DNA of 64,000 nucleotides, from the IMG/VR virus record IMGVR_UViG_3300037455_000221, positions 32,001 to 96,000 of that record, one strand, 5' to 3'. Both the position numbers and the translations under genes were made by a program. Positions 603-32,849 of this stretch are shown piece after piece. This stretch comes from a virus (taxonomy: Duplodnaviria > Caudoviricetes). The notes beneath the pieces were generated by a model, which was not told the origin of the DNA, did no database searches, and worked only from the letters and a program-made list of their open reading frames with translations. Positions within the stretch are counted from its first letter, which is position 1; each line of letters starts with the position of its first letter.

Positions 603-2363
603 ATGGCAAATATAACTCATTCAGATGAGCTTGTGACAAAACAAGATTTGCATAGTTTTTATCAGGGTATATATCCGTATCTCGGCTCTAAATCACAATC
701 AGATTGGGATGAGTCAGATGTCACGAAAACTTCTTACATTAAAAATAAACCAAATTTATATCTGATATTTGATGGCACAAAGGCTACTTACCAGAGAAAT
801 ATGAAGAACTGGTTTAACGCTAATGGTGTGGACACTGCGGACGCGGAGGAATTAACACATCTTTGCGAGAGATGGTATAAAGTCAGCGCGATAGGCTGGA
901 AGGGCGGTGTGTCTTTTCCCGCCATCACAGAGTCTACCGGTTCGACCGGCACAAAGTTCGGCGATAATGTGGGGCTGACTTGTGTTCCGTCTACTGACAC
1001 GGTGGCTAATACTGACGATTATCAGGGACTTCCGCTGTTTGCAATAACTGACTGCAACTGGGAGCTTGATGAGAACGGTAATATTCTCATTACGGCAATT
1101 GATGGAATTACCGACAATTTCAAACGCAATGATCCAACAGTATTTGTTGGCGTAATACAACAGACTGGTTATGTGAAGAAGGTTAATACTGCAACTACAC
1201 AGGACTATTATTATGCTGATGCTGCAAATGCGTATGAAAATCTTGTGCCATTACCTGAGGCTATTAAGCTCGATGGTACAGTGAGGAGCTTCGTGGTGCA
1301 CGCTAAATATATGAGCGGCATTGTAAATTCAAAGATGACTTGCTGTTCTGGCGTAATACCTAGAAGAAATATTTCGCACAATGGACTTATTACAATGCCC
1401 GATAATATTGGCACACAGTACAGCGGAGGTACAAGCGTTGACTGGTCATTTCTTGTATGGATGCAGAGAATAAAGTATGCATCACTTACTTCAGATGGAG
1501 TACTTCAAGGATGTTGTGCTTATAATTATCAGTACTATGTGCAAGTGGGCGAAACAGATGTTAAGCGTCTGATACTTGATGCGACACAAGGAGCAAATCT
1601 TAAAGTTGGTTCAACGATATGTTTTGGCTCTTATGCGGGCAATACTGATAGAGGTAATAGCGGTACTTATGATATATCAGGTCAGGATGGCGCGATTATT
1701 ACTTCTATTGAAGATGTAACTATAAATAGTGTGGCCTATAAGGCTGTATACGTAGACGTTACTACTGCATTTACTACAGTCGCAAATGGCGCGGCTACTA
1801 CAGGCACAACCATAGTGAGCACACACCATTGGATATCGGGCATGTGTGATGGCGTTAAGGGTAATGATGGATCGCCCGTGTCGGCTACTAATGGAGTTTA
1901 CCCCGCAATGCTTCAGGGCGTTGAATATATGGTAGGCGGATACGAGGTATTCGCCGATGTTATCATGAATATTTCCGGCGGCTACTACTCTCCTGTCTAT
2001 GCAAGGCGCGCGACATATCAGGCTACGTCTATTACTGAGAATATGGTGGCGTCTACACTTAAGTGTGCTCAGCCTAGTAGTGATGCTTGGAGATATGTTC
2101 AGCAACATGATTTTGATGGAGAGATATTCTACCCTACGTCACAAGGTGCAGATAGTACTAAATATATGAAAGATGGATTTTATATGAATGGTACTACTAC
2201 CACTACTGCAACTAGGGAATGGCTGGCGTTTGGCACCCTGTACAGCGGCTCTGGGCATGCTGGTTTGTCGTGCTTGGCCGGCCACACCGCCCTTGGGGCC
2301 GGTTGGTGGGCCTTCTTGGCGCGCATTTCCCCCAACGGCAATAGGGGTGAATTGGCGGCGTAA
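603..2363 (+). CDS. DGR target protein, 586 aa; fibre/adhesin-like with a C-terminal CLec-type variable domain
   Basis: VR at the 3' end matches TR; N-terminal QSDWxExDxTKxSYIKNKP fibre motif; ends in WLAFG...ARIS as in DGR CLec targets. Confidence 0.9.
   Translation: MANITHSDELVTKQDLHSFYQGIYPYLGSKSQSDWDESDVTKTSYIKNKPNLYLIFDGTKATYQRNMKNWFNANGVDTADAEELTHLCERWYKVSAIGWKGGVSFPAITESTGSTGTKFGDNVGLTCVPSTDTVANTDDYQGLPLFAITDCNWELDENGNILITAIDGITDNFKRNDPTVFVGVIQQTGYVKKVNTATTQDYYYADAANAYENLVPLPEAIKLDGTVRSFVVHAKYMSGIVNSKMTCCSGVIPRRNISHNGLITMPDNIGTQYSGGTSVDWSFLVWMQRIKYASLTSDGVLQGCCAYNYQYYVQVGETDVKRLILDATQGANLKVGSTICFGSYAGNTDRGNSGTYDISGQDGAIITSIEDVTINSVAYKAVYVDVTTAFTTVANGAATTGTTIVSTHHWISGMCDGVKGNDGSPVSATNGVYPAMLQGVEYMVGGYEVFADVIMNISGGYYSPVYARRATYQATSITENMVASTLKCAQPSSDAWRYVQQHDFDGEIFYPTSQGADSTKYMKDGFYMNGTTTTTATREWLAFGTLYSGSGHAGLSCLAGHTALGAGWWAFLARISPNGNRGELAA
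2221..2329 (+). repeat. DGR variable repeat (VR)
   Basis: 109-nt ungapped alignment to 2469-2577 with 16 mismatches, each opposite a TR adenine. Confidence 0.97.
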
Positions 2364-2386
2364 GCCGACAAGAGGGGTCTCCCCTT
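2352..2386 (+). promoter_or_regulatory. DGR homing hairpins downstream of VR/IMH
   Basis: TTG-G-CGGC-GTAA-GCCG-A-CAA (2352-2371) and AGGGG-TCT-CCCCT (2373-2385); absent after TR. Confidence 0.6.
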
Positions 2387-2468
2387 ATTTTGTAACTTAT
2401 AAACTAAACTATTTTTGAAAAACCATAGGGTACTTAGTCGAGTGTCTGGGCGGTTCCGGTGTTTCTGG

Positions 2469-2577
2469 GGCTGGCGTTTGGCAACCTGAACAACGGCTCT
2501 GGGAATGCTGGTTTGTCGTACTTGAACGGCAACAACGACCTTGGGAACGGTAGGTGGAACTACTTGGCGCGCATTTC
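2469..2577 (+). ncRNA. DGR template repeat (TR), within a structured RNA of about 2425-2700
   Basis: Intergenic; 8 AAC + 1 AAT codons in the VR frame; directly upstream of RT; shares the GC-rich 3' end TTGGCGCGCATTTC with VR. Confidence 0.97.
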
Positions 2578-2715
2578 TTGACTACTCTCGATTAATTAAA
2601 CGGTGTAATAACTATGCGACTATGTATCCTCGCTGCGGCGGAAATAGAGAGCTATTGCAACCGGCTAGTAGGTAATGGCGAAGACCGGCGCTTTCAAAAG
2701 GAAAGGAAAAATATT

Positions 2716-3942
2716 TTGAAGAAAAGGTGTAAACATATTGATATTACTGATCCAAAGACGGTTAGAGATTGGGTAGCAGATTGCATAACTAGACATAAGG
2801 CTCGTTATGATTTTAGAGATATGCTACTTGAAAATGGATTATCTAAAGATGATTATGATAGAGTGATTGATGAACATGCTAATTATTTAATGGAATCTGC
2901 TATCGAAAAGATCACAGCTGAAACATGTAGGAGAATTAAAGAAAGAGATTTGGCTTTGCCTCCTGTGCGTATTCGTGAACAGAAAGATCATACTACTGGT
3001 AAAGTTAGAATGATTGGATGTGAATCTCCTATGCAGCAGATTATGGATTATATTGCTGTTTATTCTTGTCAAGAAATTTTTGATGCAAGAATCGTACCTC
3101 AACAATGCTCATCAGTTCCTGGTCGTGGTCAGGTATATGGGATGAAGTTAATTAGAAAATATGTTAACACCGATAATAGATCCATTAGATATTGTAAGAA
3201 ACATGGATATAAGTATTTTAGTAAATGTAAATACGTTGTAAAACTTGATATTGAAAAATGTTTTCCTTCCGCCAAAATGGAAATATTTATTGATTTATTC
3301 AAGCATGATTGTGGTAATCAAACAATTGTGTGGTTGTGGACAACATTGTTCCTTACTCATCGTTATGCGGGATATGAAGGATTTATGATAGGATCTCTTA
3401 TCTCACAATGGGCTTGTCAGTATATGTTATCATTTGTATATCGAGAAGCTATGAATATTGGTTATGTAAAACGCAATGTAAAGCATAGTTCTGTGTCTCA
3501 TATGATAATGTTTATGGATGATATGGCATTATTCGGGAGTAACAGAGAACAATTACATAAAGCAGTGCTTCATTTGATAACATATACTTATGATAAGCTA
3601 GGTTTTAAGATTAAATTGAATTATGCCATACACCCATTTAGTCAAGTGGATATGATGGGGTATGTAATATATGGTAATGGTACTGTTAGTATTAGGTCTC
3701 GCAATTATATCAAGGCTCGTAGATTAAAGATAAGGTGCATCACGCAAGGTAGTCTTTCGCTGAGGCAATCAAAGAGAATGGTATCATACAAGGGGTTTTT
3801 CAAGCACTCTGATTTTAATAAGCCGGGGATGTTTGAAATATTTTGTATCGCTCAAAACGTAATAAGTGCAAAGGAGAAACATCATGGAGAAGGGAATATA
3901 TTCGGAACTTCCGGAGAGAATAGATTATCTGCAGCATCGTGA
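2716..3942 (+). CDS. DGR reverse transcriptase
   Basis: KLDIEKCFPS, GFMIGSLISQW (DGR-type SQ signature), FMDD catalytic motif, DMMGY; likely TTG start after RBS GAAAGGA (track start 2614 lies in the TR spacer). Confidence 0.95.
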   Translation: MKKRCKHIDITDPKTVRDWVADCITRHKARYDFRDMLLENGLSKDDYDRVIDEHANYLMESAIEKITAETCRRIKERDLALPPVRIREQKDHTTGKVRMIGCESPMQQIMDYIAVYSCQEIFDARIVPQQCSSVPGRGQVYGMKLIRKYVNTDNRSIRYCKKHGYKYFSKCKYVVKLDIEKCFPSAKMEIFIDLFKHDCGNQTIVWLWTTLFLTHRYAGYEGFMIGSLISQWACQYMLSFVYREAMNIGYVKRNVKHSSVSHMIMFMDDMALFGSNREQLHKAVLHLITYTYDKLGFKIKLNYAIHPFSQVDMMGYVIYGNGTVSIRSRNYIKARRLKIRCITQGSLSLRQSKRMVSYKGFFKHSDFNKPGMFEIFCIAQNVISAKEKHHGEGNIFGTSGENRLSAAS

Positions 3943-18466: not shown

Positions 18467-18700
18467 ATGAATGAAAAGAGATATGAAACAAGTAAGATAA
18501 CCGGAAGGACATACGAGCTATTCTCACAGATAAGAATACTAAATATACAGCAATGTATTTTTTATCTGGAGAATGGCGTTGTCCTTAATGATATAGAAAT
18601 TAGTGAAGACCGTAAGACGCATCAGCCGATTATGGTCTTTTTATTTAATAGAGAAGACACTTACGATGCCTATGATAAATGGTGTAAGCGTCATCAGTAA
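18467..18700 (+). CDS. Hypothetical protein
   Basis: ORF with RBS; FxREDTYDAYDKW. Confidence 0.65.
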   Translation: MNEKRYETSKITGRTYELFSQIRILNIQQCIFYLENGVVLNDIEISEDRKTHQPIMVFLFNREDTYDAYDKWCKRHQ

Positions 18701-18710
18701 GGAGACGTTT

Positions 18711-19208
18711 ATGAGGATAATGGGCATTGATGCTAGTACGACATGTTCGGGTGTGGCGGTAATTGAGGATGGCAAACTTATATATCATGATGCTATTGAT
18801 ATGAAGAAGAATAAGGATGCTGAGCAGCGAGTTAAAAACATGATGAGTGAGTTGGGTGAGATCATAAAAGCCTACTCTCCCACTGCCGTATATATTGAGG
18901 ATTCATGGAATAAACAAAATATTGAAACCACGAAGATGTTATCTAATTTGTTAGGCGCAGTGATGTATGTGTGCCAGGATCTTGGGTGTGAGTTTACAAA
19001 ATTACTTCCATCAGCTTGGCGTAGTTTAACCGGGATAAAAATGGTTGGTAAAGGCGGTACACATCTTAAACGCACTGAGCTTAAGCAAGAGGCTGTAAGT
19101 AAAGTAAAAAAGAATTACAAGATAGATTGTGGCGACGATGAAGCCGAAGCTATATGTATTGCTGAGGCTGGGTGGTTGTCACAAGATTCTGAGTGTTTAT
19201 TTGAATGA
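18711..19208 (+). CDS. RuvC-like Holliday junction resolvase
   Basis: IMGIDASTTCSG, VYIED, DDEAEAICI. Confidence 0.85.
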   Translation: MRIMGIDASTTCSGVAVIEDGKLIYHDAIDMKKNKDAEQRVKNMMSELGEIIKAYSPTAVYIEDSWNKQNIETTKMLSNLLGAVMYVCQDLGCEFTKLLPSAWRSLTGIKMVGKGGTHLKRTELKQEAVSKVKKNYKIDCGDDEAEAICIAEAGWLSQDSECLFE

Positions 19209-19221
19209 AAGGAAAATGATT

Positions 19222-19767
19222 ATGAATATAGAATTATTTATGAAACAAATGAACGGCGAGCATAAGGAAGGTATCATACAAAAACATATTACTAGACAAT
19301 ATATTCCTATTGAAGAAAAAATAGCAAGAGCAAAGAAAATAATTGAAATATCTTGTTATAAAGATATGGTAGATCAAAATGGGAATATTCAAAAAATATT
19401 TTGGGTTAATTCAGTCACTAAACATTTCCTTACTATTAAATCTATAATAGAAATGTATACTGATCTTACTTTTTCAGAGAATATAACTAAGGATTACAAT
19501 ATGCTTAACGAAAAAAAGTACGATGAATTAATCTTAAGTTTATTACCAATGGAAGATGTAATATCTTTCAATAACATAATAGACATGGTGTATGATGATG
19601 AATATGAGAATGTAAATTCTATTCAAGGTAGATTTAAAAATCTTATATTTGGATTTGATAATATACTTGGAAAAGCACTTGAAGAGATAGTTTATAATCA
19701 GATAAAGGAGGACGAATCTGATGGCAAGGAACGCGAGTTTAAGGAGTCTGATCCAACAGAGAATTAA
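19222..19767 (+). CDS. Hypothetical protein (tail chaperone-like position)
   Basis: Synteny before the TMP. Confidence 0.55.
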   Translation: MNIELFMKQMNGEHKEGIIQKHITRQYIPIEEKIARAKKIIEISCYKDMVDQNGNIQKIFWVNSVTKHFLTIKSIIEMYTDLTFSENITKDYNMLNEKKYDELILSLLPMEDVISFNNIIDMVYDDEYENVNSIQGRFKNLIFGFDNILGKALEEIVYNQIKEDESDGKEREFKESDPTEN

Positions 19768-20353
19768 AGGTATCTATAAAAAATATATTGTGCAATTCGA
19801 AAAAGATGTAATGCAAGATATAAAGTCAGATTTCAAAGATTCAATTGATATATGGATAAAAACATTTACATCTTGGAAGCAATCAAAAAATCAACCGGAT
19901 CATAATAGATTTGATGTTTTGTACGCTGCCAGTAGCTTATACCCTGATAAAAATCCCAATGTAAAAAGAATTGGTGAGTTTGGATATATATCACAAATGG
20001 AAGTAGGGCCAGAATATCTCGATCAAAACAGAGTAAAATTCATATCGCAATGGGGAGATGCTAGTGGGAATGTATTCCCTAATACCGCCGCATATAATTT
20101 AATGTATGAAGCTGGTATATATGGTTATTGTATCGATATAGTCAAACGTTCATGGTATAAAAATGAAAAGCCTAGTAAAAGAAAAAAGATAATAGACTTT
20201 TTATTGTTGGAAAATGTGATTCCTCCCAATCCATTTGATACGCCTGATAGTATTATGAATCAGAAATTTAAAAGAATTCAATCTCAAGCGTATTTAGATA
20301 GAAAGTGGGAAAAATATAATAAGAAAGTTATTCGTGATTTAAAGAACAAATAG
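19721..20353 (+). CDS. Hypothetical basic protein preceding the TMP
   Basis: RBS AAGGAGG; AT-rich. Confidence 0.55.
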   Translation: MARNASLRSLIQQRIKGIYKKYIVQFEKDVMQDIKSDFKDSIDIWIKTFTSWKQSKNQPDHNRFDVLYAASSLYPDKNPNVKRIGEFGYISQMEVGPEYLDQNRVKFISQWGDASGNVFPNTAAYNLMYEAGIYGYCIDIVKRSWYKNEKPSKRKKIIDFLLLENVIPPNPFDTPDSIMNQKFKRIQSQAYLDRKWEKYNKKVIRDLKNK

Positions 20354-20399: not shown

Positions 20400-23300
20400 A
20401 TGGCAGAGGCTTTATATTCAATTAAAGTAGAAATTGATGAAAAAACTCTTAAACAAACTACAGCAAAGACTCAGCAATATATAGAAAAACGCTTAGGTAA
20501 TAATAAGGTAAAACTGAACCTTGGAACATCTGATATTGGACAAGCTCTTGGAGCCTTAAAAGAAATGGCCGGCGATAATAAAGAAATGGCTGCGTCGCTG
20601 GAGAAAACTTTCCTTACACAACAAGGAAAGATGGTCAATGCTGATCTAAGAAGTTATAAGCGTATTAACGCAAACTTTAATAAGAACAGAAAATACGATA
20701 CTGTTCTTAATAACTATTACAAAAAGTTTGAAAGGTTAAATACTAAATATGGAGAGTCTGATTCGCTAAAAGATCAACTTAGATTAATTAATGGCGTAAA
20801 AGGATTATTCACAGATATCACTACTGCAAAGAAATTAAATCTTACTTCTTACGATGGACATGACGTTCCAGATAAAATAGATAGTGACAACTTATATAGG
20901 GATCTTACAAGAAAAATTCTTTCGGAGCTGAGATCTAATATGTCAACCATGATGAATCCTGATATACAAAATGCAATCAGTGATTTAGAGAAGTGGGTTG
21001 AAAGTACAGGTAAAAGAAATACATATAATCTTTATAATGAAGGTGATATAGGATCGGTTATAAAGTCATTAACAGATTCAAAAGCTAATATTGATAAATG
21101 GAAGCAACAAGCTGTTAATGCTGTTAAGCAATCAACTGAAGAGATCAATAATGTAGCTAAGGTTGCTAACAATGCTCAAAAGTCAATTGCAAAATCTTCA
21201 GGGAATAAAGGGAAAAAGAAGTTATCTTTAGAGGCCTTACAAAATCAATACGACGAAATTGTTGGTAAAGATTTAGATGATACTGAAATTACTGAAGAAG
21301 AAAAAGAACAATTAATTAATGTATTAAATGAAATAAAAACAAAAAACTCAGAAATTTATAAAACATTAATAGAAGATCTATCGGAATATATAGGTAATAC
21401 TTTTGTTGAAAATAACGAACATATCTTTAAAGATGTTTTAAATAACATTGAAAATTCTGATATTAAATCTTCAACCAAGGTCTTTGATGATAGTTTATCT
21501 AAGATTATTAATAATATTAAATCAGATCATGATAGAAAAAAAGATAATAAATATATTGAAGATATGTTAATTGATCGCCTTGATTATATTCTTGGTGATG
21601 AAAATAGATCATATAAAGGGAAAAAAGCCTTAACAAATGAAGAAATAAATGAGATTGTTGAAATATTAAAGTATTCAGCTATCGCCGACAAGATGTCATA
21701 TAACGGCAAAACAAGACCGGGATTATATAATAATGTAAAATCTCATTATGAAGATTTATTATTTTATGCAAGTGATGCAGAAGGATATAATGCTAAGTCG
21801 TTTAAAGATTTAGGTACTGCAATAAAATCCGTAAATGCATTTGTTGATAATTTATCTTCCGGAGATATAAATAATCTCGATCTTGTAACAAAAGAAAAAT
21901 CAAATAAATTTATACAAAATATTTCTAGAATTCAAAAACAAATATCTTCTTTTAATGATTATCTTGAAGTTATTGGTAGATTAACAGATTTAAATGGATA
22001 TAGTGATTTTGGCGAAATGGGATTTAATGGAACCAAAATCTCACATAACGAAGGTGGATCTGTTAGAGTAGGTGGAAAAACTAGGATGATAGATTATCAC
22101 TCTCATCCTTGGCAAGGATATAAAAATCTTATGCCGTCCGCCTCGGATTTACGCAGTTATTTATATGCATTGAATGATAATAAAGATAAAAATGGTAATC
22201 CTTATCTTAAAGAAGCATATATTTCGCAAGGTGATAGATTATTAAAAATAGATTTTAGTAATATAGATTGGGGTAAAACTTCTCCTGAAGAATTAAGAAA
22301 AGAATTATTTTCTACCATAATGCAAGCCGTTAAAGATGCGGGAGGAGAAATAAAAAATTCAAAATCCTTTAAGGATAAAGAATGGTATACATCTTCAGAC
22401 CCAAGATTGTCTGGGCAAATTGAAGAAGCTGTAAATAGCGCAATGCTTTCAGTACTTTCTAAGTATGGAGGCAATGTGGGTATGGCTCATAAAAATGCTT
22501 CGGGTCAATATGTTGATATGCAAACCGGAGAAATATGGGCTGGTAATAAAGAGGTTAACGAGAAATATTTTGATAAAGATATTTTTAATGGAGCTGATGA
22601 AATAGGGAAAGCCGCATCTGAGATAAGAATTGCTGCTGAAACAATTGAAAGAGCTGCAGAGATATTAACAGGAAATGACAATGATATTCATGCGGCTTCT
22701 GATGAAATAGAGCAAATTTCAGAAGGTGCTGTTTTTTCTTTACTTGATTCTATTACTAAAGAGATTCAGCGAACCAATACTAAGTTGAGTGGTAAAAATG
22801 GTATTGGAGGCACTGCTCAAGTTGGAGTATTAGAAACACTGCGAGAAAACCTAAGAGAGTTCCTGCTGACAGACAGGACGGGCGTTGAAGTATTCGGTGG
22901 TATAAAACATGAATTTAATCAAGTTCGTACAGAGAATGATATAATACTTGCTAATAAAAAATTATATACAAGTTTAGTAGCTATAACAAAAGAACTGTCT
23001 GTATTAAAATCTAAAGGATTAGGAAGAACTAAGGAATACAGAGATAAACTTGCAGAAAGAAAACGAATTACTGCCAACTTAGATTCAGCCAATGAAGAAC
23101 AAGGATATTTAATGGATTTAGCAACAGCAGAAGCAAATGCATTAGTTGCTAAACAACTTCGTGAACAACTTGATAAAGATCAAAAACAAGCAAAGGCAGC
23201 AGTAGATACAAAGATTAACGCTGGCTATGTTATTGATAGCGCTTTCCAAAAAGCTTATGAAGGCTTTGATGCCAGTGCGTTAAAAAAGATGGCCGACTTA

Positions 23301-26300
23301 ATGGAGGTCATGAATGGTAATAAAGCCGGTATTAATGTAGATACATTATTTAAATCGGTTCAAGGTATAATTACTGGTCTTGAAGATGCAAGACGTAATT
23401 TAGGTGCTAATGTTTCAAGAGCACCTAAACAAACGACTCCTGTTTCAGATAAAGACATTTCTGCTTTTGTTAATAGGATTAATAGAGAAATCCAAAAAAC
23501 TGGTATTAATGCCGTAACTGGTGGCTCTGGACAAGTTTCTGAATTAGCAAAATTAAGAGATGCTGTTCAGAATATTAATCCTAATGATCGTGATGCATGG
23601 GATGATTATAATAAACAGTTTGAAATATTAACTGGTCAAAATAATATTATAGAAGGTAATGAAAAATTATATAGGCAACTTGTAGAAATAACACAAGACT
23701 TAATTAATTTAAAATTACAAGGCAAAGATACATCAAGAGGATATCAGAATAAGTCAAATCAAAGGGAAGCAATTTTAAATAAAATTGGTGTTGCGGGAAC
23801 GAATAGAGATGCGTTAGACAAAGAGGCTAGTAAAGACGCATATTCCGCAATAGCTTCTAAGTTAATTGATAGCGTTACTAAGATTGGAAATGATACTGCG
23901 CTTGATTTTCAAGCAAAGTTTAATAAAGGATTTGATTTTGAAGATGAATTCTATAAACCATATGTTCAACTTAGTAAAGATGCAAAGGCTATAATTGAGA
24001 GACTTATGCTCGTTATGGAGGGCACAGCTACAGATGCTCAGAAGGACATAGAAGAAGCCGGTAATATTATTAAACAATTAACGGATGTAAAATCTAATAT
24101 AAATTCAAAAGCAATTAAACAAGTTGCTCCGGTAGAAGGTTCAAAGATATCTTCTCGCATTGATCAATTCTCAGCATTTATCAATAAAAAAGGGGTTTCT
24201 GTTGATGAAAATTTAAATAATTCTCTTTTACAATATATTGAGAAATTAAAGAATTTTGAAAATGATGATACAAGAAATCCTAGAATTTATGAAATGCTCG
24301 AACAAGAAGGTGATCAGCTTAAGGAGCAAATTAATGCCTTAGATCAGATTATTAAGAGATATGAGGAAACATATCAGTTACGTGTTAAAATTGCAGAGCT
24401 TGAAATCTCTGGTGAAAATCCGGAAGCTTTAGCTGATTATAATGAAGAATTAAAAAAAGAAAAGGATATTATTTCCTCAATTGCACAATCGTTTGGTGTT
24501 GATGATAGTATTACTGCAAAAATATTTGGAGATCCGTCTGAATATGAAGGCAAAAGAAAAGAATATGTAGCAAAATTACAAAATACAATTCGCGGTATAG
24601 AAACTGCTAAACTGAACGAAGAAAAAAGAGGTTATGGATATACTGAAGATTATGAAAACAGATTTAAGGTAGCAAAAGATTATACCGATTATTTAGTCAA
24701 AAGATTACAAGACACTAAGCTGTCTACGGATGAAATAAAAGAAGCATTAAAAGAGGCTTATAGATTTGTTGATGATATTAATGAGGCAGATGGATTACAA
24801 CAATTAAAAAGAGATACTCATTCAAGCGAATCTGTTATTGTAAAAAGAAATCAGGCAGCCAATCTATTTTCTTCAGCTTCTACTCTGTTAACCAAGACAA
24901 GTGGGTTTGGAGTGAGTAAAGAAGATAGAATAGAAATATATAAGATATATGCGGAATTAAAAAATATATCAGATGCTGCTGATAAGGCTGGCGGAGAAAT
25001 GTCTGATCTGAATAGAATCAGATATGATGAACTTACAGCAAGAATAAAGGATTTAACTGCAAAGTATAAAGAGTTAGGTGTATACGGAAATAATCTCTTC
25101 TCTAGAATTGGTAGAACAATTAAAGCACAAACTATTAGTGCTCTTTCTCGTTATTTCTCTTTATATGATATTATTCGTTATGTGCGCAGTGGAATTAATA
25201 CCATTAAAGAGCTTGATACAGCAATGGTTGAGCTTCGCAAGGTTACTGATGGCACTGCTCAAGAGTATGAAGATTTCAGGAAAGAGATTAATGCAACCGC
25301 TAGTGAAATTGCATCTACTAATAAAGATTTAATTAGTTCTGCAGCGGATTGGGCTAGATTAGGTTATTCGATTAAAGAAGCTACTGAACTTGCTAGGGAC
25401 GCTCAGATATTTGTAAATGTTGGAGATGGTGTTGACATTAAGGGCGCAACCGATATGATGATCACCGCCATGAAGGCATTCAACATTGAGGCTGACGAAG
25501 CATTATCAATTGTAGATAAGTATAATGAGATAGGTAATAATTTCGCATTATCAGCTACTGATATTGGTGATGCGATGCAGCGATCTGCTTCAGTTCTTGC
25601 AGCATCCAATACATCATTTGATGAATCAATAGCACTTATTACTGCCGGTAATGAAATAATCCAGGATCCTGAAAAGATGGGTACAGCTCTTAGAACTGTA
25701 GCTCTTCGTATTCGTGGTGCGAAAGCCGAGCTTGAAGAAATGGGTGAAGAAACGGATTATGTTGTAAACTCAACTTCAAAGCTTCGTGAACTTATTAAGG
25801 GTTATACAAGTATTGGTGGTAAATATGAAGGCTTTGATATCATGGAAGACGAAGATACCTTCAAATCTCTTGCAGATATTATTAAAGGTATTGGTGAAGT
25901 CTATGATGAAATGTCTGATATTGATCGTACAGCAATGCTTGATAAACTTGCTGGTAAAAATAGATCAAATGCTCTTGCAGCAATGCTTCAGAATTATAAA
26001 CAGATAGATAATGTTCTTATGTCTATTGAAGAATCTGAAGGATCTGCTATTAGAGAAAACGAGCACATCGTTGATTCGATTCAGGGTAGAATAACAAAAT
26101 TACAAACTGCAGCTGAGAATTTCTGGCAAGCATTTTTAGATACAGATTTAATTAAAGATGCAGTTAGTGCCCTTACCGAATTATTAAATAAATTAACTGA
26201 ATTTATAGATAAGCATGGAAGCGGTGAATTGCTAGCGGGTATAGCTAGCATTGCAACTCTTAGATTCACAGGAGTTGGAAATGGTTTTATCAATTCTATA

Positions 26301-29300
26301 AAGACAATAATACAGTCAAAGGTTGCGATAAGTGCTACTCAAAATGCATTATCTCAATTAACACAAGGGACTGAAGAATATATTCAGGCAGAAAAAGAAT
26401 TAGCTGATCTTAATACTTTATGTCAGGGAAGTTTTAATTCTTTAAAAATTTCAGTTAATAAAGTAATAGGAGCCCTTAAGAAAATAGGCCCAGTTGGTTG
26501 GGGTGTTATAGCTGCTATAACAGCGATTGGTGTCGTTATAACTGAACTTACAAAGAAAGAAATAAAACAAATACAGAAAGTAAAAGAATTAGCTGATGAA
26601 TATAGCAGTAGTACTAAGGAGTTAAGTAAATATAAAGAAAAAATTGGACAACTTCAATCAATATTAAGAGATGAATCTTCTACAACTGATGAACTCATAG
26701 GAGCAAAAGAAGGTTTAAATGAAATTAATGAGCAATTAATGTCTTCGTATGAAAGTTTGAAGGGACGTATTGATTTAGCAAATATGTCACTTGAAGACAC
26801 TGTTGATTTGATTAATAAACTTGATCAAAAGAAATTAAACGATATAATTACAGCAGCTACCGGAAGAGAATCTGATTTTGCATATGCGCTTTCTGACGGA
26901 TTTGATTTTACAGATCTTGGAAAAGTATTTAATGGTAGTAGGTCTGAATTAGACAGAGCGATTAATTTTTATTTAAATGGATTAGATGCTAGGAATAATA
27001 CGACACTTCAAGCAGGCCTTAGTCATCTTGATACTACTAAAACTGCGCGTGAACAATATGCTGAGCTGTTAAAATTAATAGATGAACAAACAGCTATTAT
27101 ATTAGATGAAAATAGTAGTGCATTTACCAAATGGGAAGCAGAACGATTAAATTCTATTTTATTAGCAACTAAAGATGCCTTTGACGAGACTTTCGAACAG
27201 CTAGGTAATATTGAGGCAGCATATGGAAGTACATTGTTATCAAAATATGAAGATGCATATTCTAAATACCAAAATGCTGAATTAAATTATATATTAGATA
27301 AAAGTGAAGAAACAAAAAATGCGTTAAGCCAAGCATTAAGAGATTTATGGAAGACTGCTTCAGAAGAAGATAAAGTTGCAATTGAAGAATACATGAAAAT
27401 AAAATATGGAGAATCGTTCGGAACTCCTGATGATTGGAATTTTGACGACTATCAAAATAATAGAGTATTTATTCGTCATGCAACTGGTCGTTATATTGGT
27501 GATGATAGTAAGAATGGCGATATTACGAACTTACTTTCATTTAACAATTTAGATGAAGCATTAGAATATATAATAGAAAAAACTGGGAAAGAATTAAAGT
27601 CTCAGGAATTTATAGATTGGGCTTCAGTTAGCGATAGTGAGTTAGTATCATTGCGCGGGCATGGTGCTGATAATGAAATAGATTCAGGACTTATTCTGTT
27701 TAGAGAGCTTGTTAAAACTAGTGGGCAAGATTTAGATTATTTTATTGACAGATTAGAAGAACTTGGATATTCCATATCTCCAAAAGAAGATTATTTTAGA
27801 CAATATTTAGAAAAATCTCGCAATGAATCTATTGCAAAATTTGGATCTGGTTTTGCTGATCAATTTGATAAATTGAATCTTTCCACCGGAACACAAATAG
27901 ATATTTGGAATAGTATTAGAGATCAAGCTACTAATGCAGCAGAAGCGGTTGAAATGTATCGTCTTAAGATGAGCGGGCTTGAAGCGTCTACTAGTGCTAA
28001 TGATGTTCTTAAAGATATGGAAGAACAGTATAAGCCTACATTTGACGCAATGGCTGAAGCATATAAGGCTATATGGGATGATAAAAATGTATTCCAGGGA
28101 ATGGATAAAATCACTTCCGAACAGATTAATTCTGTACGTTCACAATTAGAAAGCGTTAATTCTAGTCTTAAAGAAAATGGATTAGATATGATTGATTCGT
28201 CTGAAATTGATGATTTCATACTTACGCTTTCCGACGCTGATGCAACGGCTGATGAAGTTCAAGCTGCATTTGACAATATCGCCACGGTGCTTGTTGACAG
28301 TTTAAATCCGGCATTAGGTCAAGCTTCTGGGGAAACTGCTGAATTAATGCAGAAAACACTTACTGAACTTGGTGTCACCAATGCTGAAGCAGTTGTATTT
28401 AGTAGACTTGGATATACAGCTGAAACATATGCAAAGGCTAAAGAAGCTGCCGATGCAGCTGACATAGATCTTGATGCCGAACTTAGTTCATTAAGCGATG
28501 AAGAATTACAAATAGTTGCAAATAATGAAGCATTAATGGCTTATTATAATGGTAAATTGCTTGTTGGAGGAGCAGAAATAACTACTCCTGAAGAAGCTCA
28601 ATTGCTTATTGATTATTGTAACCAAATGGGCATTGCTCAACTTGGTACTTTAAATCTTGCTAGTGCCGAAAGAGAATTACGTGCCGCAATTGATCAGACT
28701 AATGAAGGTATTAGAATTGGCAATATGGAACTTCAAGCAAGAGGAGAAGTTGGAATAGCTAACATTATTAAACAACTTAATAGTGAGAAAGCTAAAGTTA
28801 AATTTGGAGCCAAAACCATATTTAATGGCAATGAAAATAAATCTTCTTCTGGTTCTACTAAGTCTTCTGACTCTAAGCAGAAGTTTGACTGGATCGAGCG
28901 CGCCATCAAAAAGATACAGCGTGCAGTTACTAATCTTGGTAAGATAGCAGATGCTACATATAAATCATGGGGTGAACGTCTTGATGCTATTATGGGCAAG
29001 ACGCAAGAGTTCCATGATGAAATTGGTAGATTTGGACAAGGTAATATTGATTTATATAATCGTCCTCAATACATAAATGAAGATGGGTCTATATCTACTG
29101 TAAGGAGTATGTCATTTGGCGATGAATTTGGAAATGAAATATTAGTTCCAACCATAGCTTTTGATAATAATGGTAATCCTTATTCAATGTCTGACGATGA
29201 AGCGATTGCTCGTTATTATGAAACTGGTGAATATCTTGGTTTATTCAAGTCAGTTGAAGAAGCTGAAGAATATGCAGAGAAACTTCATGAGCAACAAGAC

Positions 29301-31640
29301 GCTCTTTATGTTAGTGGTGGAAACAGTTTTTATGCCGGTAAATATCAAAAGCTTAAGGAAGAGATAGCACTTCAAGAACAAGCTGCTCAGGCATATATGC
29401 AAGAGGCTAACGCTATTGGTCTTGCTGCTGAATATCGTAATAAAGTTATGAATGGTATGATGGACATCGAAACTATAAGTGATGAAACACTTAAGGAACA
29501 GATATCCGATTTCCAGGAATATTATGATAAAGCTACTGATGCTGCTGATGCTGTTGAAGATTTACGCGGCGAACTTGCTCAACTTGCTCAAGTCAAGTTT
29601 GATATGATCACAAAGCAGTTTGAAGAGATGGCCCTTGCTATCGATCATGCCGCTACACGTATTGGACATATTCAAAGTAAGATGGATTCTGAAGGTTATT
29701 TTGAGTCTTCTACTCTTATTGAACAGCTCTTATTTGGAGATAAGGAAAAGCTTTCACAGCTTGAAGATGAAGCACGTCAACTTGCCGCATCCATTGATGA
29801 GGCTGTAGCTAATGGTGACATTGAGTATGGTTCTGAACAATGGTGGGGAATGTATGACTCACTTCAGAATGTAAATGATCAGATTGTAGAAATGAAATCT
29901 AACATGGCTGACCTTAATGATCAGTTACGTCAGATGGATTGGGATAGATTTGATTATGTACAAGATTCTATAGAGCGTCTTAGAACTGAGAATGATTTCT
30001 TGATTGATACTCTGGAGACAGAGAATCAATTATTTGAAAAAGTCCAGTTAATGAATACTGATATTATGGTGTCCAATGGTAACTGGACTGAGACTGCTAC
30101 TGCTATTCAAGGACTTCGTGTGAATAACTTGGAGATCTTTAAGCAGCAGAATGAAGAAGTCGCCGAAGAAATTAAAAAGATAAATGCCGATCTTGCTAAT
30201 GATCCTAATAATAAGAAATTGTTAGAGCGTCGCAACACTTTGATAGATCAACAACAAGATATTATAAAAGGTATCACACAAGAGAAGCAATCTATTAAGA
30301 GTCTTATTCAAGAAGGCTATGAGACGTTCCTTAACTATCTACAGAAGTCTATTGATAAGCGTAAGGAAGCTCTTAGGGCTGAAAAGAATCTGTATGACTA
30401 TCAGCGTACAGTTTCTGATCAAACTAAGACTATTACTGATTATAGAAAGCAACTTGCTGCACTTAGTGGCGGAACTGATTCTGAAGAAAATCGTGCTCGC
30501 TTACAACAGCTTAAGGATGACCTTACTAAAGCTGAGAAGGATCTTCAGGATACTGAGTATGAAAGATGGTTAACTGATCAAGAAGAGATGATGGATAGTA
30601 TGTATGAGTCATTTGAGAATCTCATCAATGAAAAACTTGATGATCTTGAAGGATTAATTGAAAGTGCTATTCAGCAGACAAAAGATAATTCTGATAGTAT
30701 TGCTAAGACAATTGGCGAACAGGCTGATGAATTTATCTACGATCTTGATAACACTTCATTTGGAGTAAACTTTGATGCACGTATTAGTGATGCAGTAACT
30801 GCTGTTAATTCAGTAGAGAATGCTATTAATAATATGATTAACGCAGCAAATATAAATGCTCAGAATGAATTAGCGCAGTTGCAAGCACTTGCTCAGACCA
30901 TTGTTACTCAGGCTCAGGTTCAGGCACAACAGATTGCACAAGCTAATGCTAATATTAATAATAATGGTGGCGGCAATGGTGATGGTAATGGATCTAACGT
31001 TGATAAGACTAAGGGTTCTGATGTTACAAATACCGGGAATGATGTAAAAACAGAATCTAAAACTTCAGCCAATCAAGGTAACACAAAACTTACTTCAGAA
31101 GAAAGAAGTAGAAGAATTAGGGAACTCAATGAGGAACGTGCTTATTATTCTAATAAGGCAAGAGAAGAAGAAAGATATGCTGCTACACCTGGTTTGCTTA
31201 GTTCTGAAAGACAACAGCATCTTACTAATATGAGCTATTATGATACAAAGGCAAATCAGATAGGACAGGAAATAAACAGATTGTCTAAGTTTGCTAAGGG
31301 TGGTACTGTTGGTTCTGCTATTAGAGGCACCGGCGAAGATGGTATCATTCTTGCTCGTACCGGTGAAGAGGTACTCTCTCTTGAACGTATAAAGCAGATG
31401 CAAGGTATTTTCAAGATGATGCAGCCTCTTGCCGCACTTGGCACTAATAAGACCATTAGTAACATTGGTGGTACTACTACTGTCAATGGCATGAACGTAT
31501 CGTTTGAGCTACCTAATGTAACAAGCTATGAAGACTTTGTACGCCAGGCTAAGAGCGATCCTACGTTTGAGAAGTTGGTACAAAATATAACTATAGGCAC
31601 AGCCCTAGGAAAAAGTAAATTGAGTAAATACTCACTGTAA
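20400..31640 (+). CDS. Tape measure protein, 3746 aa, with accessory domains
   Basis: TP901-type core (KELDTAMVELRKVT..NEIGNNFA..GNEIIQDP); long coiled coils; C-terminal FAKGG motif; followed by Dit. Confidence 0.92.
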   Translation: MAEALYSIKVEIDEKTLKQTTAKTQQYIEKRLGNNKVKLNLGTSDIGQALGALKEMAGDNKEMAASLEKTFLTQQGKMVNADLRSYKRINANFNKNRKYDTVLNNYYKKFERLNTKYGESDSLKDQLRLINGVKGLFTDITTAKKLNLTSYDGHDVPDKIDSDNLYRDLTRKILSELRSNMSTMMNPDIQNAISDLEKWVESTGKRNTYNLYNEGDIGSVIKSLTDSKANIDKWKQQAVNAVKQSTEEINNVAKVANNAQKSIAKSSGNKGKKKLSLEALQNQYDEIVGKDLDDTEITEEEKEQLINVLNEIKTKNSEIYKTLIEDLSEYIGNTFVENNEHIFKDVLNNIENSDIKSSTKVFDDSLSKIINNIKSDHDRKKDNKYIEDMLIDRLDYILGDENRSYKGKKALTNEEINEIVEILKYSAIADKMSYNGKTRPGLYNNVKSHYEDLLFYASDAEGYNAKSFKDLGTAIKSVNAFVDNLSSGDINNLDLVTKEKSNKFIQNISRIQKQISSFNDYLEVIGRLTDLNGYSDFGEMGFNGTKISHNEGGSVRVGGKTRMIDYHSHPWQGYKNLMPSASDLRSYLYALNDNKDKNGNPYLKEAYISQGDRLLKIDFSNIDWGKTSPEELRKELFSTIMQAVKDAGGEIKNSKSFKDKEWYTSSDPRLSGQIEEAVNSAMLSVLSKYGGNVGMAHKNASGQYVDMQTGEIWAGNKEVNEKYFDKDIFNGADEIGKAASEIRIAAETIERAAEILTGNDNDIHAASDEIEQISEGAVFSLLDSITKEIQRTNTKLSGKNGIGGTAQVGVLETLRENLREFLLTDRTGVEVFGGIKHEFNQVRTENDIILANKKLYTSLVAITKELSVLKSKGLGRTKEYRDKLAERKRITANLDSANEEQGYLMDLATAEANALVAKQLREQLDKDQKQAKAAVDTKINAGYVIDSAFQKAYEGFDASALKKMADLMEVMNGNKAGINVDTLFKSVQGIITGLEDARRNLGANVSRAPKQTTPVSDKDISAFVNRINREIQKTGINAVTGGSGQVSELAKLRDAVQNINPNDRDAWDDYNKQFEILTGQNNIIEGNEKLYRQLVEITQDLINLKLQGKDTSRGYQNKSNQREAILNKIGVAGTNRDALDKEASKDAYSAIASKLIDSVTKIGNDTALDFQAKFNKGFDFEDEFYKPYVQLSKDAKAIIERLMLVMEGTATDAQKDIEEAGNIIKQLTDVKSNINSKAIKQVAPVEGSKISSRIDQFSAFINKKGVSVDENLNNSLLQYIEKLKNFENDDTRNPRIYEMLEQEGDQLKEQINALDQIIKRYEETYQLRVKIAELEISGENPEALADYNEELKKEKDIISSIAQSFGVDDSITAKIFGDPSEYEGKRKEYVAKLQNTIRGIETAKLNEEKRGYGYTEDYENRFKVAKDYTDYLVKRLQDTKLSTDEIKEALKEAYRFVDDINEADGLQQLKRDTHSSESVIVKRNQAANLFSSASTLLTKTSGFGVSKEDRIEIYKIYAELKNISDAADKAGGEMSDLNRIRYDELTARIKDLTAKYKELGVYGNNLFSRIGRTIKAQTISALSRYFSLYDIIRYVRSGINTIKELDTAMVELRKVTDGTAQEYEDFRKEINATASEIASTNKDLISSAADWARLGYSIKEATELARDAQIFVNVGDGVDIKGATDMMITAMKAFNIEADEALSIVDKYNEIGNNFALSATDIGDAMQRSASVLAASNTSFDESIALITAGNEIIQDPEKMGTALRTVALRIRGAKAELEEMGEETDYVVNSTSKLRELIKGYTSIGGKYEGFDIMEDEDTFKSLADIIKGIGEVYDEMSDIDRTAMLDKLAGKNRSNALAAMLQNYKQIDNVLMSIEESEGSAIRENEHIVDSIQGRITKLQTAAENFWQAFLDTDLIKDAVSALTELLNKLTEFIDKHGSGELLAGIASIATLRFTGVGNGFINSIKTIIQSKVAISATQNALSQLTQGTEEYIQAEKELADLNTLCQGSFNSLKISVNKVIGALKKIGPVGWGVIAAITAIGVVITELTKKEIKQIQKVKELADEYSSSTKELSKYKEKIGQLQSILRDESSTTDELIGAKEGLNEINEQLMSSYESLKGRIDLANMSLEDTVDLINKLDQKKLNDIITAATGRESDFAYALSDGFDFTDLGKVFNGSRSELDRAINFYLNGLDARNNTTLQAGLSHLDTTKTAREQYAELLKLIDEQTAIILDENSSAFTKWEAERLNSILLATKDAFDETFEQLGNIEAAYGSTLLSKYEDAYSKYQNAELNYILDKSEETKNALSQALRDLWKTASEEDKVAIEEYMKIKYGESFGTPDDWNFDDYQNNRVFIRHATGRYIGDDSKNGDITNLLSFNNLDEALEYIIEKTGKELKSQEFIDWASVSDSELVSLRGHGADNEIDSGLILFRELVKTSGQDLDYFIDRLEELGYSISPKEDYFRQYLEKSRNESIAKFGSGFADQFDKLNLSTGTQIDIWNSIRDQATNAAEAVEMYRLKMSGLEASTSANDVLKDMEEQYKPTFDAMAEAYKAIWDDKNVFQGMDKITSEQINSVRSQLESVNSSLKENGLDMIDSSEIDDFILTLSDADATADEVQAAFDNIATVLVDSLNPALGQASGETAELMQKTLTELGVTNAEAVVFSRLGYTAETYAKAKEAADAADIDLDAELSSLSDEELQIVANNEALMAYYNGKLLVGGAEITTPEEAQLLIDYCNQMGIAQLGTLNLASAERELRAAIDQTNEGIRIGNMELQARGEVGIANIIKQLNSEKAKVKFGAKTIFNGNENKSSSGSTKSSDSKQKFDWIERAIKKIQRAVTNLGKIADATYKSWGERLDAIMGKTQEFHDEIGRFGQGNIDLYNRPQYINEDGSISTVRSMSFGDEFGNEILVPTIAFDNNGNPYSMSDDEAIARYYETGEYLGLFKSVEEAEEYAEKLHEQQDALYVSGGNSFYAGKYQKLKEEIALQEQAAQAYMQEANAIGLAAEYRNKVMNGMMDIETISDETLKEQISDFQEYYDKATDAADAVEDLRGELAQLAQVKFDMITKQFEEMALAIDHAATRIGHIQSKMDSEGYFESSTLIEQLLFGDKEKLSQLEDEARQLAASIDEAVANGDIEYGSEQWWGMYDSLQNVNDQIVEMKSNMADLNDQLRQMDWDRFDYVQDSIERLRTENDFLIDTLETENQLFEKVQLMNTDIMVSNGNWTETATAIQGLRVNNLEIFKQQNEEVAEEIKKINADLANDPNNKKLLERRNTLIDQQQDIIKGITQEKQSIKSLIQEGYETFLNYLQKSIDKRKEALRAEKNLYDYQRTVSDQTKTITDYRKQLAALSGGTDSEENRARLQQLKDDLTKAEKDLQDTEYERWLTDQEEMMDSMYESFENLINEKLDDLEGLIESAIQQTKDNSDSIAKTIGEQADEFIYDLDNTSFGVNFDARISDAVTAVNSVENAINNMINAANINAQNELAQLQALAQTIVTQAQVQAQQIAQANANINNNGGGNGDGNGSNVDKTKGSDVTNTGNDVKTESKTSANQGNTKLTSEERSRRIRELNEERAYYSNKAREEERYAATPGLLSSERQQHLTNMSYYDTKANQIGQEINRLSKFAKGGTVGSAIRGTGEDGIILARTGEEVLSLERIKQMQGIFKMMQPLAALGTNKTISNIGGTTTVNGMNVSFELPNVTSYEDFVRQAKSDPTFEKLVQNITIGTALGKSKLSKYSL

Positions 31641-31707: not shown

Positions 31708-32022
31708 ATGAAGAAGTTTGATGAATTAAAACTTAAGAGGCGTGAACAAAAGATTATTGATCTTCAGCAAGAGAATGAAGAACTGAGAAACCATATGATG
31801 GCTGAAGAGGTATTAAAGGATAAACAGCGCGAGGCTGATGCGCTTTTATATCAGCTTAATGAATTACAGAATAAGTTATGTGAGGAGATCCGTGAATTTG
31901 AAAAGGCTCGTGATGAATATATAGCTGAGAAAAGAAGGTTCGCGAAACTCAACATTGAATATAAAAGAAAGATGGATAAGTACTTTAAACAAATTGGTTA
32001 TAAAAAGGAGGAGGCGACATGA
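31708..32022 (+). CDS. Coiled-coil hypothetical protein
   Basis: ORF with RBS AAGGAG. Confidence 0.6.
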   Translation: MKKFDELKLKRREQKIIDLQQENEELRNHMMAEEVLKDKQREADALLYQLNELQNKLCEEIREFEKARDEYIAEKRRFAKLNIEYKRKMDKYFKQIGYKKEEAT

Positions 32023-32849
32023 GTACTATCGCTAATGATTTTATAGATTTTTATTACTGCGGTCATACGCTATCTGAATACAACGGCATTGTCGGTAGTA
32101 TTGGTGGCATTACTCCTGGTGACCCTGTGGAGATAGGTAGTGTGCTAAATCTCAATCCCGTAGAGATTAAACCACTCAAGAAAAGAAAAAGCGTGTATGC
32201 CAGTTACGATGATTATGTAGAGAAGCAGTTTTCATTCTTCAAGAATCCTTGTACCGGATTGAGTTATTATTCAAGAGGTGAAGTAACTGAAATAATTAGA
32301 TGGTTAAATCAGCCACGTTATGAGAAGTTTATTCCTATGTACACTGATACTTCCTGGCCAGTTGTACATTACTATGCTTCGTTTAATGTACAGCCAATTA
32401 CCTATCAGGGTAATGTAATTGGATTCCAACTTAACATGGTAACAAATGCGCCATTTGGATATTATGAGGAAGTAACCGCATCAGGTGTTGACTCGCTTAT
32501 ACTTAAAGACACATCTGACGAACAAGGATTCATATATCCTACTTGTACTATTCGAATGATTAATAGCGGTCATTTGGTTTTAACCAATGATCGGGATCCT
32601 AATAATCAGACAGTTGTTTCTAACTGTGAGTCTGGCGAGATTATAACTCTTAATGGAGAGTATGGAACTATTACTAGCTCACGTGCACATACTTATTTAT
32701 ATGATGATTTTAATTATGTGTTCCCGAAGATATGGAATAAGATGGCATCTGACGGAAGCAATCATAGGATAAACATATATTCAGCAAACCACGCTGACAC
32801 AGTTATCACTATGACATATGAACCTATAAGTAAATTTGGACTTATTTAA
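32019..32849 (+). CDS. Distal tail protein (Dit)
   Basis: DFYYCGHTLSEY, IRWLN, TNAPFGY, DFNYVFP; position after the TMP. Confidence 0.75.
   Translation: MSTIANDFIDFYYCGHTLSEYNGIVGSIGGITPGDPVEIGSVLNLNPVEIKPLKKRKSVYASYDDYVEKQFSFFKNPCTGLSYYSRGEVTEIIRWLNQPRYEKFIPMYTDTSWPVVHYYASFNVQPITYQGNVIGFQLNMVTNAPFGYYEEVTASGVDSLILKDTSDEQGFIYPTCTIRMINSGHLVLTNDRDPNNQTVVSNCESGEIITLNGEYGTITSSRAHTYLYDDFNYVFPKIWNKMASDGSNHRINIYSANHADTVITMTYEPISKFGLI

Follow-up and report, generated by a model that had tools for sequence, protein, structure and literature searches.

A putative JAB/MPN-like domain within the N-terminal extension of a giant phage tape measure protein

The stretch of DNA analysed here, called the window, is 64,000 nucleotides long and spans positions 32001-96000 of a 129.6-kb IMG/VR virus record (IMGVR_UViG_3300037455_000221; Duplodnaviria, Caudoviricetes). 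It contains part of a phage tail module, in which a single gene encodes the giant protein P0001, and the subject of this report is a putative JAB/MPN-like domain inside that protein. P0001 is a phage tail tape measure protein (TMP), as a preliminary description of this DNA had already stated. It has the PhageMin_Tail core and the length of a TMP, PHROG tape measure families 4211, 1272, 28 and 167 cover residues ~1350-3100, and its gene lies in the slot between two overlapping open reading frames (ORFs) in the tail assembly chaperone position and the gene for the distal tail protein, which is downstream and marks the end of the slot. The same layout of two overlapping ORFs is found upstream of the TMP gene in the related loci L002 and L004, where the SPbeta markers YomW and YomU_Tube occur in the same module. 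The domain sits in a variable N-terminal extension of ~1000-2300 amino acids (~1000 in this phage), of which it is the main conserved block ahead of the part common to relatives. The features of the region are listed in Table 1.

Table 1. Features of the tape measure region and of the domain within P0001, with positions in the window.
Feature	Position	Strand	Basis or remark
Two overlapping ORFs (19129-19767 and 19721-20353), tail assembly chaperone position	19129..20353	+	Position only
Tape measure protein gene, P0001, 3746 amino acids	20400..31640	+	Single ORF; Pfam and PHROG matches
JAB/MPN-like domain (putative), residues 520-716	21957..22547	+	Conserved block in 12 homologues; AlphaFold models
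E539, candidate general-base Glu, strand GE[MTVI][GA][FY]NG (here FGEMGFNG)	22014..22016	+	Invariant in 12 sequences
H567-S-H569-P570, candidate metal ligands (both His), end of beta-strand	22098..22109	+	H, H and P invariant; 568 is S or T
P579-S580-A-S-D583, JAMM Ser and candidate third metal ligand Asp, start of helix	22134..22148	+	P, S and D invariant
PhageMin_Tail core of the TMP, residues 1628-1852	25281..25955	+	Pfam E 3.7e-24
Distal tail protein, DUF6558 N- and C-terminal domains	32019..32849	+	Pfam E 4e-22 and 8.6e-20

The domain appears to hold a complete candidate metal site, in which H567, H569 and D583 would be the ligands, E539 the general base and S580 the serine of the JAMM signature. 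The histidines belong to the segment I564-D-Y-H567-S-H569-P570 (22089-22109), and the codon of H567 begins at 22098. The motif is spaced as HxH-x10-SxxD, compared with x7 in the canonical JAMM, and E539 lies 28 residues before HxH. Accepted JAB clades with a long spacer between HxH and the serine are represented by DUF4329 and Toxin-JAB1 sequences, in which it is 12-13 residues. The preliminary description had reported a Glu in FGEMGF at 22014, which is exactly E539, and the string IDYHSHP-x8-PSASD at 22098-22148. The positions of the latter stand, but its eight residues run only to the proline, and the spacer from HxH to the serine is 10.

Twelve homologous domains, which are 36-46% identical between lineages, were compared, and 22 of the 185 ungapped columns were invariant. 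E539, H567, H569, P570, P579, S580 and D583 are all among these 22 columns, and the rough odds of a random placement of all seven motif residues in invariant columns are (22/185)^7, or ~3e-7. The motif site is considered significant because its residues are invariant across the 12 homologous domains. The E..HxH..SxxD signature that had been recognized from the window alone is complete, and its metal ligands are conserved in every one of these domains. A strict form of the motif, H[ST]HP.{5,12}PS..D, was matched once in the window and not at all in 100 residue shuffles. The pattern of E, H[ST]H, S and D that defines Tox-JAB-2 (= DUF4329, PF14220; Zhang et al. 2012, PMC3482391) is also matched by the P0001 domain.

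Two AlphaFold2 models were obtained, each targeting a different homologue, with a predicted local distance difference test score (pLDDT) of 71.9 and a predicted template modelling score (pTM) of 0.71 for model 1, and a pLDDT of 76.8 and pTM of 0.78 for model 2. The models agree in the succession of their elements, which begins with an N-terminal helix and four short strands and continues with the active-site helix, a beta hairpin and two helix-plus-hairpin units. In both, the Glu starts the first strand, HxH closes the fourth (model 1, E69-74; model 2, E52-57) and S..D opens the helix (87-99 and 70-82, respectively). JAMM enzymes have this same placement, with the Glu in a strand, HxH where a strand ends and S..D where a helix begins. 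The globular island that the preliminary description had placed at residues ~520-640 is thus predicted to be a folded alpha/beta domain, although its true extent is longer, reaching from residue ~520 to ~716.

Structural comparison of the models with VIA-align gave weak scores, and JAB/MPN chains made up 11-12 of the top 50 among 48,161 chains for each of the two models. The JAB/MPN rows span the full model, while most of the remaining rows reach helices only. Weak rows to Rpn11, CSN5 and Sst2 were among them, and JAB clades are not told apart by these comparisons. Foldseek searches of BFVD gave matches with E-values of 4e-6 to 1e-3 to uncharacterized proteins of mimivirus-like, algal, irido- and tailed viruses and to some phage proteins annotated as "minor capsid protein"; A0A3G5A0S4, G8DDC3 and A0A8S5TR93 are among the matches. 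These virus groups are those listed for Tox-JAB-2, which has been noted in polymorphic toxins, in nucleocytoplasmic large DNA viruses (irido-, mimi- and algal viruses) as well as in Xanthomonas phage OP1 (PMC3482391); the BFVD matches themselves are candidate Tox-JAB-2 members. The fold prediction leans towards JAB, and no non-MPN fold was indicated.

Sequence links to JAB families were examined by hhalign against family alignments obtained from genome searches: Prok-JAB (n=19), DUF4329 (n=10, including ORF24 of phage OP1) and Toxin-JAB1 (n=3). The comparison with Prok-JAB gave a probability of 80% (P 1.5e-5) and a score of 38.3; the highest of 120 column shuffles scored 18.1 and the reversed comparison 19.4. 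For DUF4329 the probability was 50% (P 1.6e-4) and the score 32.7, against a column-shuffle maximum of 15.2, and the comparison with the three Toxin-JAB1 sequences was not significant. HSHP and PS..D pair with the Prok-JAB motif. PS..D also pairs with DUF4329, in which E539 is aligned with the Glu of the E.CG motif, and YDN..(P)S..D and a Y[IV].[ST]..G.L.K.D hairpin are shared. In one homologue, the motif region had sub-threshold Pfam matches to Prok-JAB (E 0.012, 15.9 bits; cut-off 25) and to DUF4329 (E 0.027, 14.9 bits; cut-off 28.6). In addition, the nearest named clusters in the ESM Atlas were all JAB families, with DUF4329 nearest and Toxin-JAB1 and Prok-JAB as the others, at scores of 0.81-0.85.

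The domain is rare. When 1.84 billion cluster representatives were scanned in full with HMMER, just four others were found to have it, all of them giant proteins, and scans of viral, genome and metagenome sequences yielded one further contig, near-identical to P0005. A profile search of proteins of 123-405 amino acids found no stand-alone form at E <= 10, and tblastn of the domain against 50,697 phage records gave no match. A DUF4329 protein likewise had no tblastn match in the phage records, and OP1 ORF24 was found only via the family model. Relatives of the TMP were then gathered through its core region, which gave 826 giant proteins at E <= 1e-10. Among the 120 of these 826 that were listed, the PhageMin_Tail core is 36-70% identical, and nearly all are without the JAB-like domain. 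Altogether, the domain was present in 13 of the 123 TMP relatives gathered, as 12 full copies and one divergent copy (in P0090), and none of the ~105 remaining listed relatives had it. The carriers form a small clade of giant SPbeta-like TMPs, across which the start of the domain varies from residue ~243 to ~819.

The divergent copy (L113:6922-7515) occupies residues 308-505 of another giant TMP and was found by hmmsearch at 25 bits. It keeps HTHP-x9-FSGGD, and with it H, H, S and D; its Glu is not aligned. To judge from this copy, the family may be wider than the search of 50%-identity representatives implied. The phage that encodes it has genes for a class V aminotransferase, an ERCC4-like nuclease and a phage integrase between its tube and TMP genes (L113:1828-4427), which is an unusual place for an integrase.

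Patchiness among related TMPs is seen in P0013-15, which have 65-66% core identity and collinear flanks, keep the N-terminal extension and lack the domain. The domain is an optional accessory cassette that is not required to build this tail, because close relatives with collinear TMPs do without it. A polymorphic cassette in which the domain is swapped for others was also considered and was not supported; the corresponding site in P0013-15 holds low-complexity helical sequence and no other enzyme.

What is observed is an invariant motif in a TMP, a patchy distribution of the domain that holds it and a fold that leans towards JAB. It is highly probable that residues ~520-716 are a JAB-superfamily domain with a live metal site. 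The closest resemblance of the domain is to the toxin-type clades Tox-JAB-2 (DUF4329) and Tox-JAB-1, and not to deubiquitinases specific for ubiquitin-like proteins (Ubls). In agreement with a toxin-type JAB are the long spacer, the all-beta stretch that separates the Glu from HxH, the BFVD matches and the ESM Atlas neighbours. The fuller statement, that this is a host-directed, virion-borne JAB-superfamily metallohydrolase, has in our estimation an even chance of being correct. The domain would be packaged in the tail within the TMP and, from what is generally known of TMPs, would leave the virion with it at infection; it would then bind zinc and act as a hydrolase on a host molecule, at a peptide or isopeptide bond or in nucleic acid. 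The whole would then resemble Rhs, PAAR and VgrG proteins with toxin domains, in that an effector is fused to a structural protein. A bolder and more doubtful proposal is that the N-terminal extension serves as a cargo arm and the JAB-like domain as a toxin-class effector injected through the tail. The phage would then use its ruler protein as type VI secretion system (T6SS) and Rhs systems use VgrG, PAAR and Rhs scaffolds, and, as the DNA enters, the enzyme might knock out a host defence or commandeer a host process, through Ubl deconjugation or through cutting of nucleic acid, according to which catalytic reading of Tox-JAB holds.

Several results weigh against assignment to the JAB superfamily, and some of them favour a rival explanation in which the domain is a lineage-specific alpha/beta fold, its His, Asp and Glu form an unrelated metal or structural site and the JAMM-like spacing is convergent. 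The loose motif is by itself at chance level: H.H.{6,12}S..D was matched once in the six frames of the window, compared with 1.13 +/- 1.19 matches in residue shuffles, so about one per window is expected. When eight motif columns were masked, the hhalign scores fell to background (10.5 for Prok-JAB and 11.1 for DUF4329), and the sequence link to JAB families rests wholly on the motif. Because of this masking test, hhalign, the sub-threshold Pfam matches and the ESM Atlas were not counted as independent of the motif, and the motif-independent evidence is the invariance of the residues and the predicted fold. Searches of the domain with Pfam, NCBIfam, PADLOC and PHROG gave nothing significant, the window's own domain had no match to JAB, Prok-JAB, RadC, DUF4329 or Toxin-JAB1, and searches of the Protein Data Bank (PDB) by phmmer and profile returned only spurious repeat or low-score matches. 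Foldseek of the models against the PDB was also empty. Beyond these, the distance from E539 to HxH (28) and the spacer from HxH to the serine (10) differ from the canonical JAMM, and both models were built on 4-5 sequences with a pLDDT of ~50 in the E539 strands. Against a virion-borne enzyme, the lumen of a tail tube would have little room for three folded copies of 200 residues each. An unrelated fold is nevertheless rather unlikely, given the whole-domain JAB/MPN rows among the best VIA-align chains for both models, the combination of HSHP, PS..D and their placement in the secondary structure, which exceeds the loose motif, and the JAB identity of all the nearest named ESM Atlas clusters.

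If the domain is a JAB enzyme, it could act as a TMP maturation protease, cutting the TMP or a tail-assembly partner in morphogenesis, for example to take off an N-terminal extension of ~1500 residues and leave a mature ruler of ordinary length. Lambda gpH and T5 pb2 are among the TMPs processed by proteolysis, and the domain lies within the only conserved block of the variable extension. JAB peptidases have also been tied to tail assembly in lambdoid and T1-like phages, in which TAPK is found beside TAPI (PMC1779556). This explanation is unlikely, though slightly less so than that of an unrelated fold: P0013-15 have both extension and core and no such domain, toxin-type JABs are the nearest clades, and the 129.6-kb phage genome has no Ubl or TAPI-like gene, with no match to ThiS/MoaD (PF02597) or Lambda_tail_I (PF06805) at E up to 1. 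No second JAB was found in the phage. Dispensability counts against an essential self-processing role and fits an accessory, infection-stage function, so the self-processing that the preliminary description had proposed is weakened, though not refuted. Its other proposal was an ejected anti-defence isopeptidase or deconjugase, which would strip ubiquitin-like modifiers that Bil-type or CBASS Cap2-type systems of the host had attached. In its favour, all of the JAMM catalytic signature is present; like most counter-defence genes, the domain can be dispensed with and has a patchy distribution; and a tail-borne isopeptidase would be well placed, as Bil systems attach a Ubl to the central tail fibre of the phage (bioRxiv 10.1101/2023.09.04.556158). 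However, none of 5027 PADLOC models, which include JAB deubiquitinases, matched the domain at E up to 10, and its spacer and upstream region are unlike those of Ubl-specific JAMMs. The nearest families, DUF4329 and Toxin-JAB1, are Tox-JAB clades, and toxin-type JABs, like RadC, have been argued to be without the Ubl-tail tunnel and possibly to be nucleases, not peptidases (PMC3482391). With no Ubl gene in the phage either, the label of deconjugase is not supported as it was put, though it is not refuted, and we regard it as improbable. More improbable still is a cell-wall peptidase that would cut peptide or isopeptide-type links of peptidoglycan in penetration, like the M23, NlpC/P60 and lysozyme domains of other TMPs. 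TMPs commonly carry wall hydrolases, such as the SLT and M23 domains of SPbeta YomI; a Pfam scan of the whole of P0001 recognized no SLT, M23 or NlpC domain, and lambda TAPK is a JAB joined to NlpC/P60. On the other side, we know of no JAB-fold peptidoglycan hydrolase, the N-terminus of a TMP, near which the domain lies, is expected to be last out of the tail, and relatives without the domain show no replacement enzyme at the site.

Other observations were made on the TMP gene and its surroundings. P0001 has a second non-helical island at residues ~2875-2970 (window 29020-29310; GNIDLYNRP...), with no Pfam family over it. In two related phages the TMP gene is broken (L002:10944-12130 and L003:7615-9096), at points that correspond exactly to P0001 residues 1652/1653 and 1712/1713. 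The insertions are 1.2 kb and 1.5 kb long and contain ORFs of 325 and 396 amino acids, and the TMP frame restarts 5-8 codons past a stop without an obvious start. The interruption has the look of an intron, or of a TMP gene that a free-standing homing endonuclease has split; Rfam gave only a 13-bit group I match (E 2.4), and neither of the inserted ORFs had a Pfam match. Also, a gene for a RuvC-like Holliday junction resolvase (18603-19208; Pfam E 5.7e-9) lies between the tube region and the chaperone-position ORFs of the window, and the same place in the tail module is kept in L002 and L004.

The catalytic superfamily and the occurrence of Tox-JAB-2 in phages are already known. What is new is a family that is detected by no curated model and has ~100 extra conserved C-terminal residues, and its placement inside a TMP. 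The literature searched for tape measure together with JAB/JAMM contained no description of a JAB-superfamily domain inside a TMP. The assignment of the fold rests on weak structural scores and the motif, and the phage is uncultured. Were the domain active and ejected, it would clearly exemplify the delivery by a phage tail of an enzyme of the polymorphic-toxin class. It would also provide an experimental handle on Tox-JAB-2/DUF4329, which Rhs and T6SS effectors and giant viruses widely carry and whose chemistry, peptidase or nuclease, had been predicted or annotated, and not assayed, in the literature examined. Near-identical TMP backbones with and without the domain offer natural pairs for comparison.

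Among known systems, Tox-JAB-2/DUF4329 shares with the TMP domain the E, H[ST]H, S, D signature, the all-beta stretch from the Glu to HxH, the hairpin that follows, a long spacer from HxH to SxxD (12 there and 10 here) and an occurrence in viruses. Tox-JAB-2 is found at the C-terminal toxin tip of proteins whose immunity gene is adjacent, or as a small secreted protein (OP1 ORF24), whereas here the domain is internal, at residues 520-716 of 3746. Unlike DUF4329, it also has the ~100 additional C-terminal residues, which are predicted to form two helices and hairpins. Prok-JAB (PF14464), with AfJAMM (PDB 1r5x), and RadC (PDB 2qlc) have HSHP...PS..D in common with it and a similar next strand (LKEAYI vs LKAFHI). 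They differ in the spacer, which is 7 residues in these proteins and 10 here, and in the Glu, which is ~45-55 residues upstream in them and 28 here. In addition, the TMP domain, unlike Prok-JAB, is predicted to have no helix from the Glu strand to the HxH strand, and no Ubl, E1 or sulfur-transfer gene accompanies it.

The TAPK protein of lambda-type phages consists of JAB and NlpC/P60 and adjoins the Ubl protein TAPI (Iyer et al. 2006, PMC1779556). Like P0001, it represents a JAB-superfamily domain within a siphovirus tail module. TAPK, however, is a small NlpC/P60 fusion in its own right, encoded beside its Ubl partner and believed to serve in the assembly of the tip, whereas here the domain lies ~520 residues into the TMP, with no NlpC/P60 and no Ubl gene found. 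In lambda K itself (L071 and L007:1277-1876), the Prok-JAB match begins 138 nucleotides upstream of the annotated start in NC_001416, and the Glu of E.CG is in the upstream stretch of a 254-residue open frame; the 199-residue annotation seems to truncate the JAB domain. Many 100%-identical matches to lambda K (L008-L070) were found on short, low-coverage contigs from unrelated bacteria, among them Algoriphagus, Neobacillus and Streptomyces, and these look like contamination of the assemblies with lambda control DNA.

YomI (CwlP) of SPbeta is a TMP with SLT and M23 domains. Both it and P0001 belong to SPbeta-like tail modules and are giant TMPs with a catalytic domain, which in P0001 is predicted. 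The two differ in that the domain of P0001 is of another fold class, and it is placed in the N-terminal extension, not in the central or C-terminal part of the protein.

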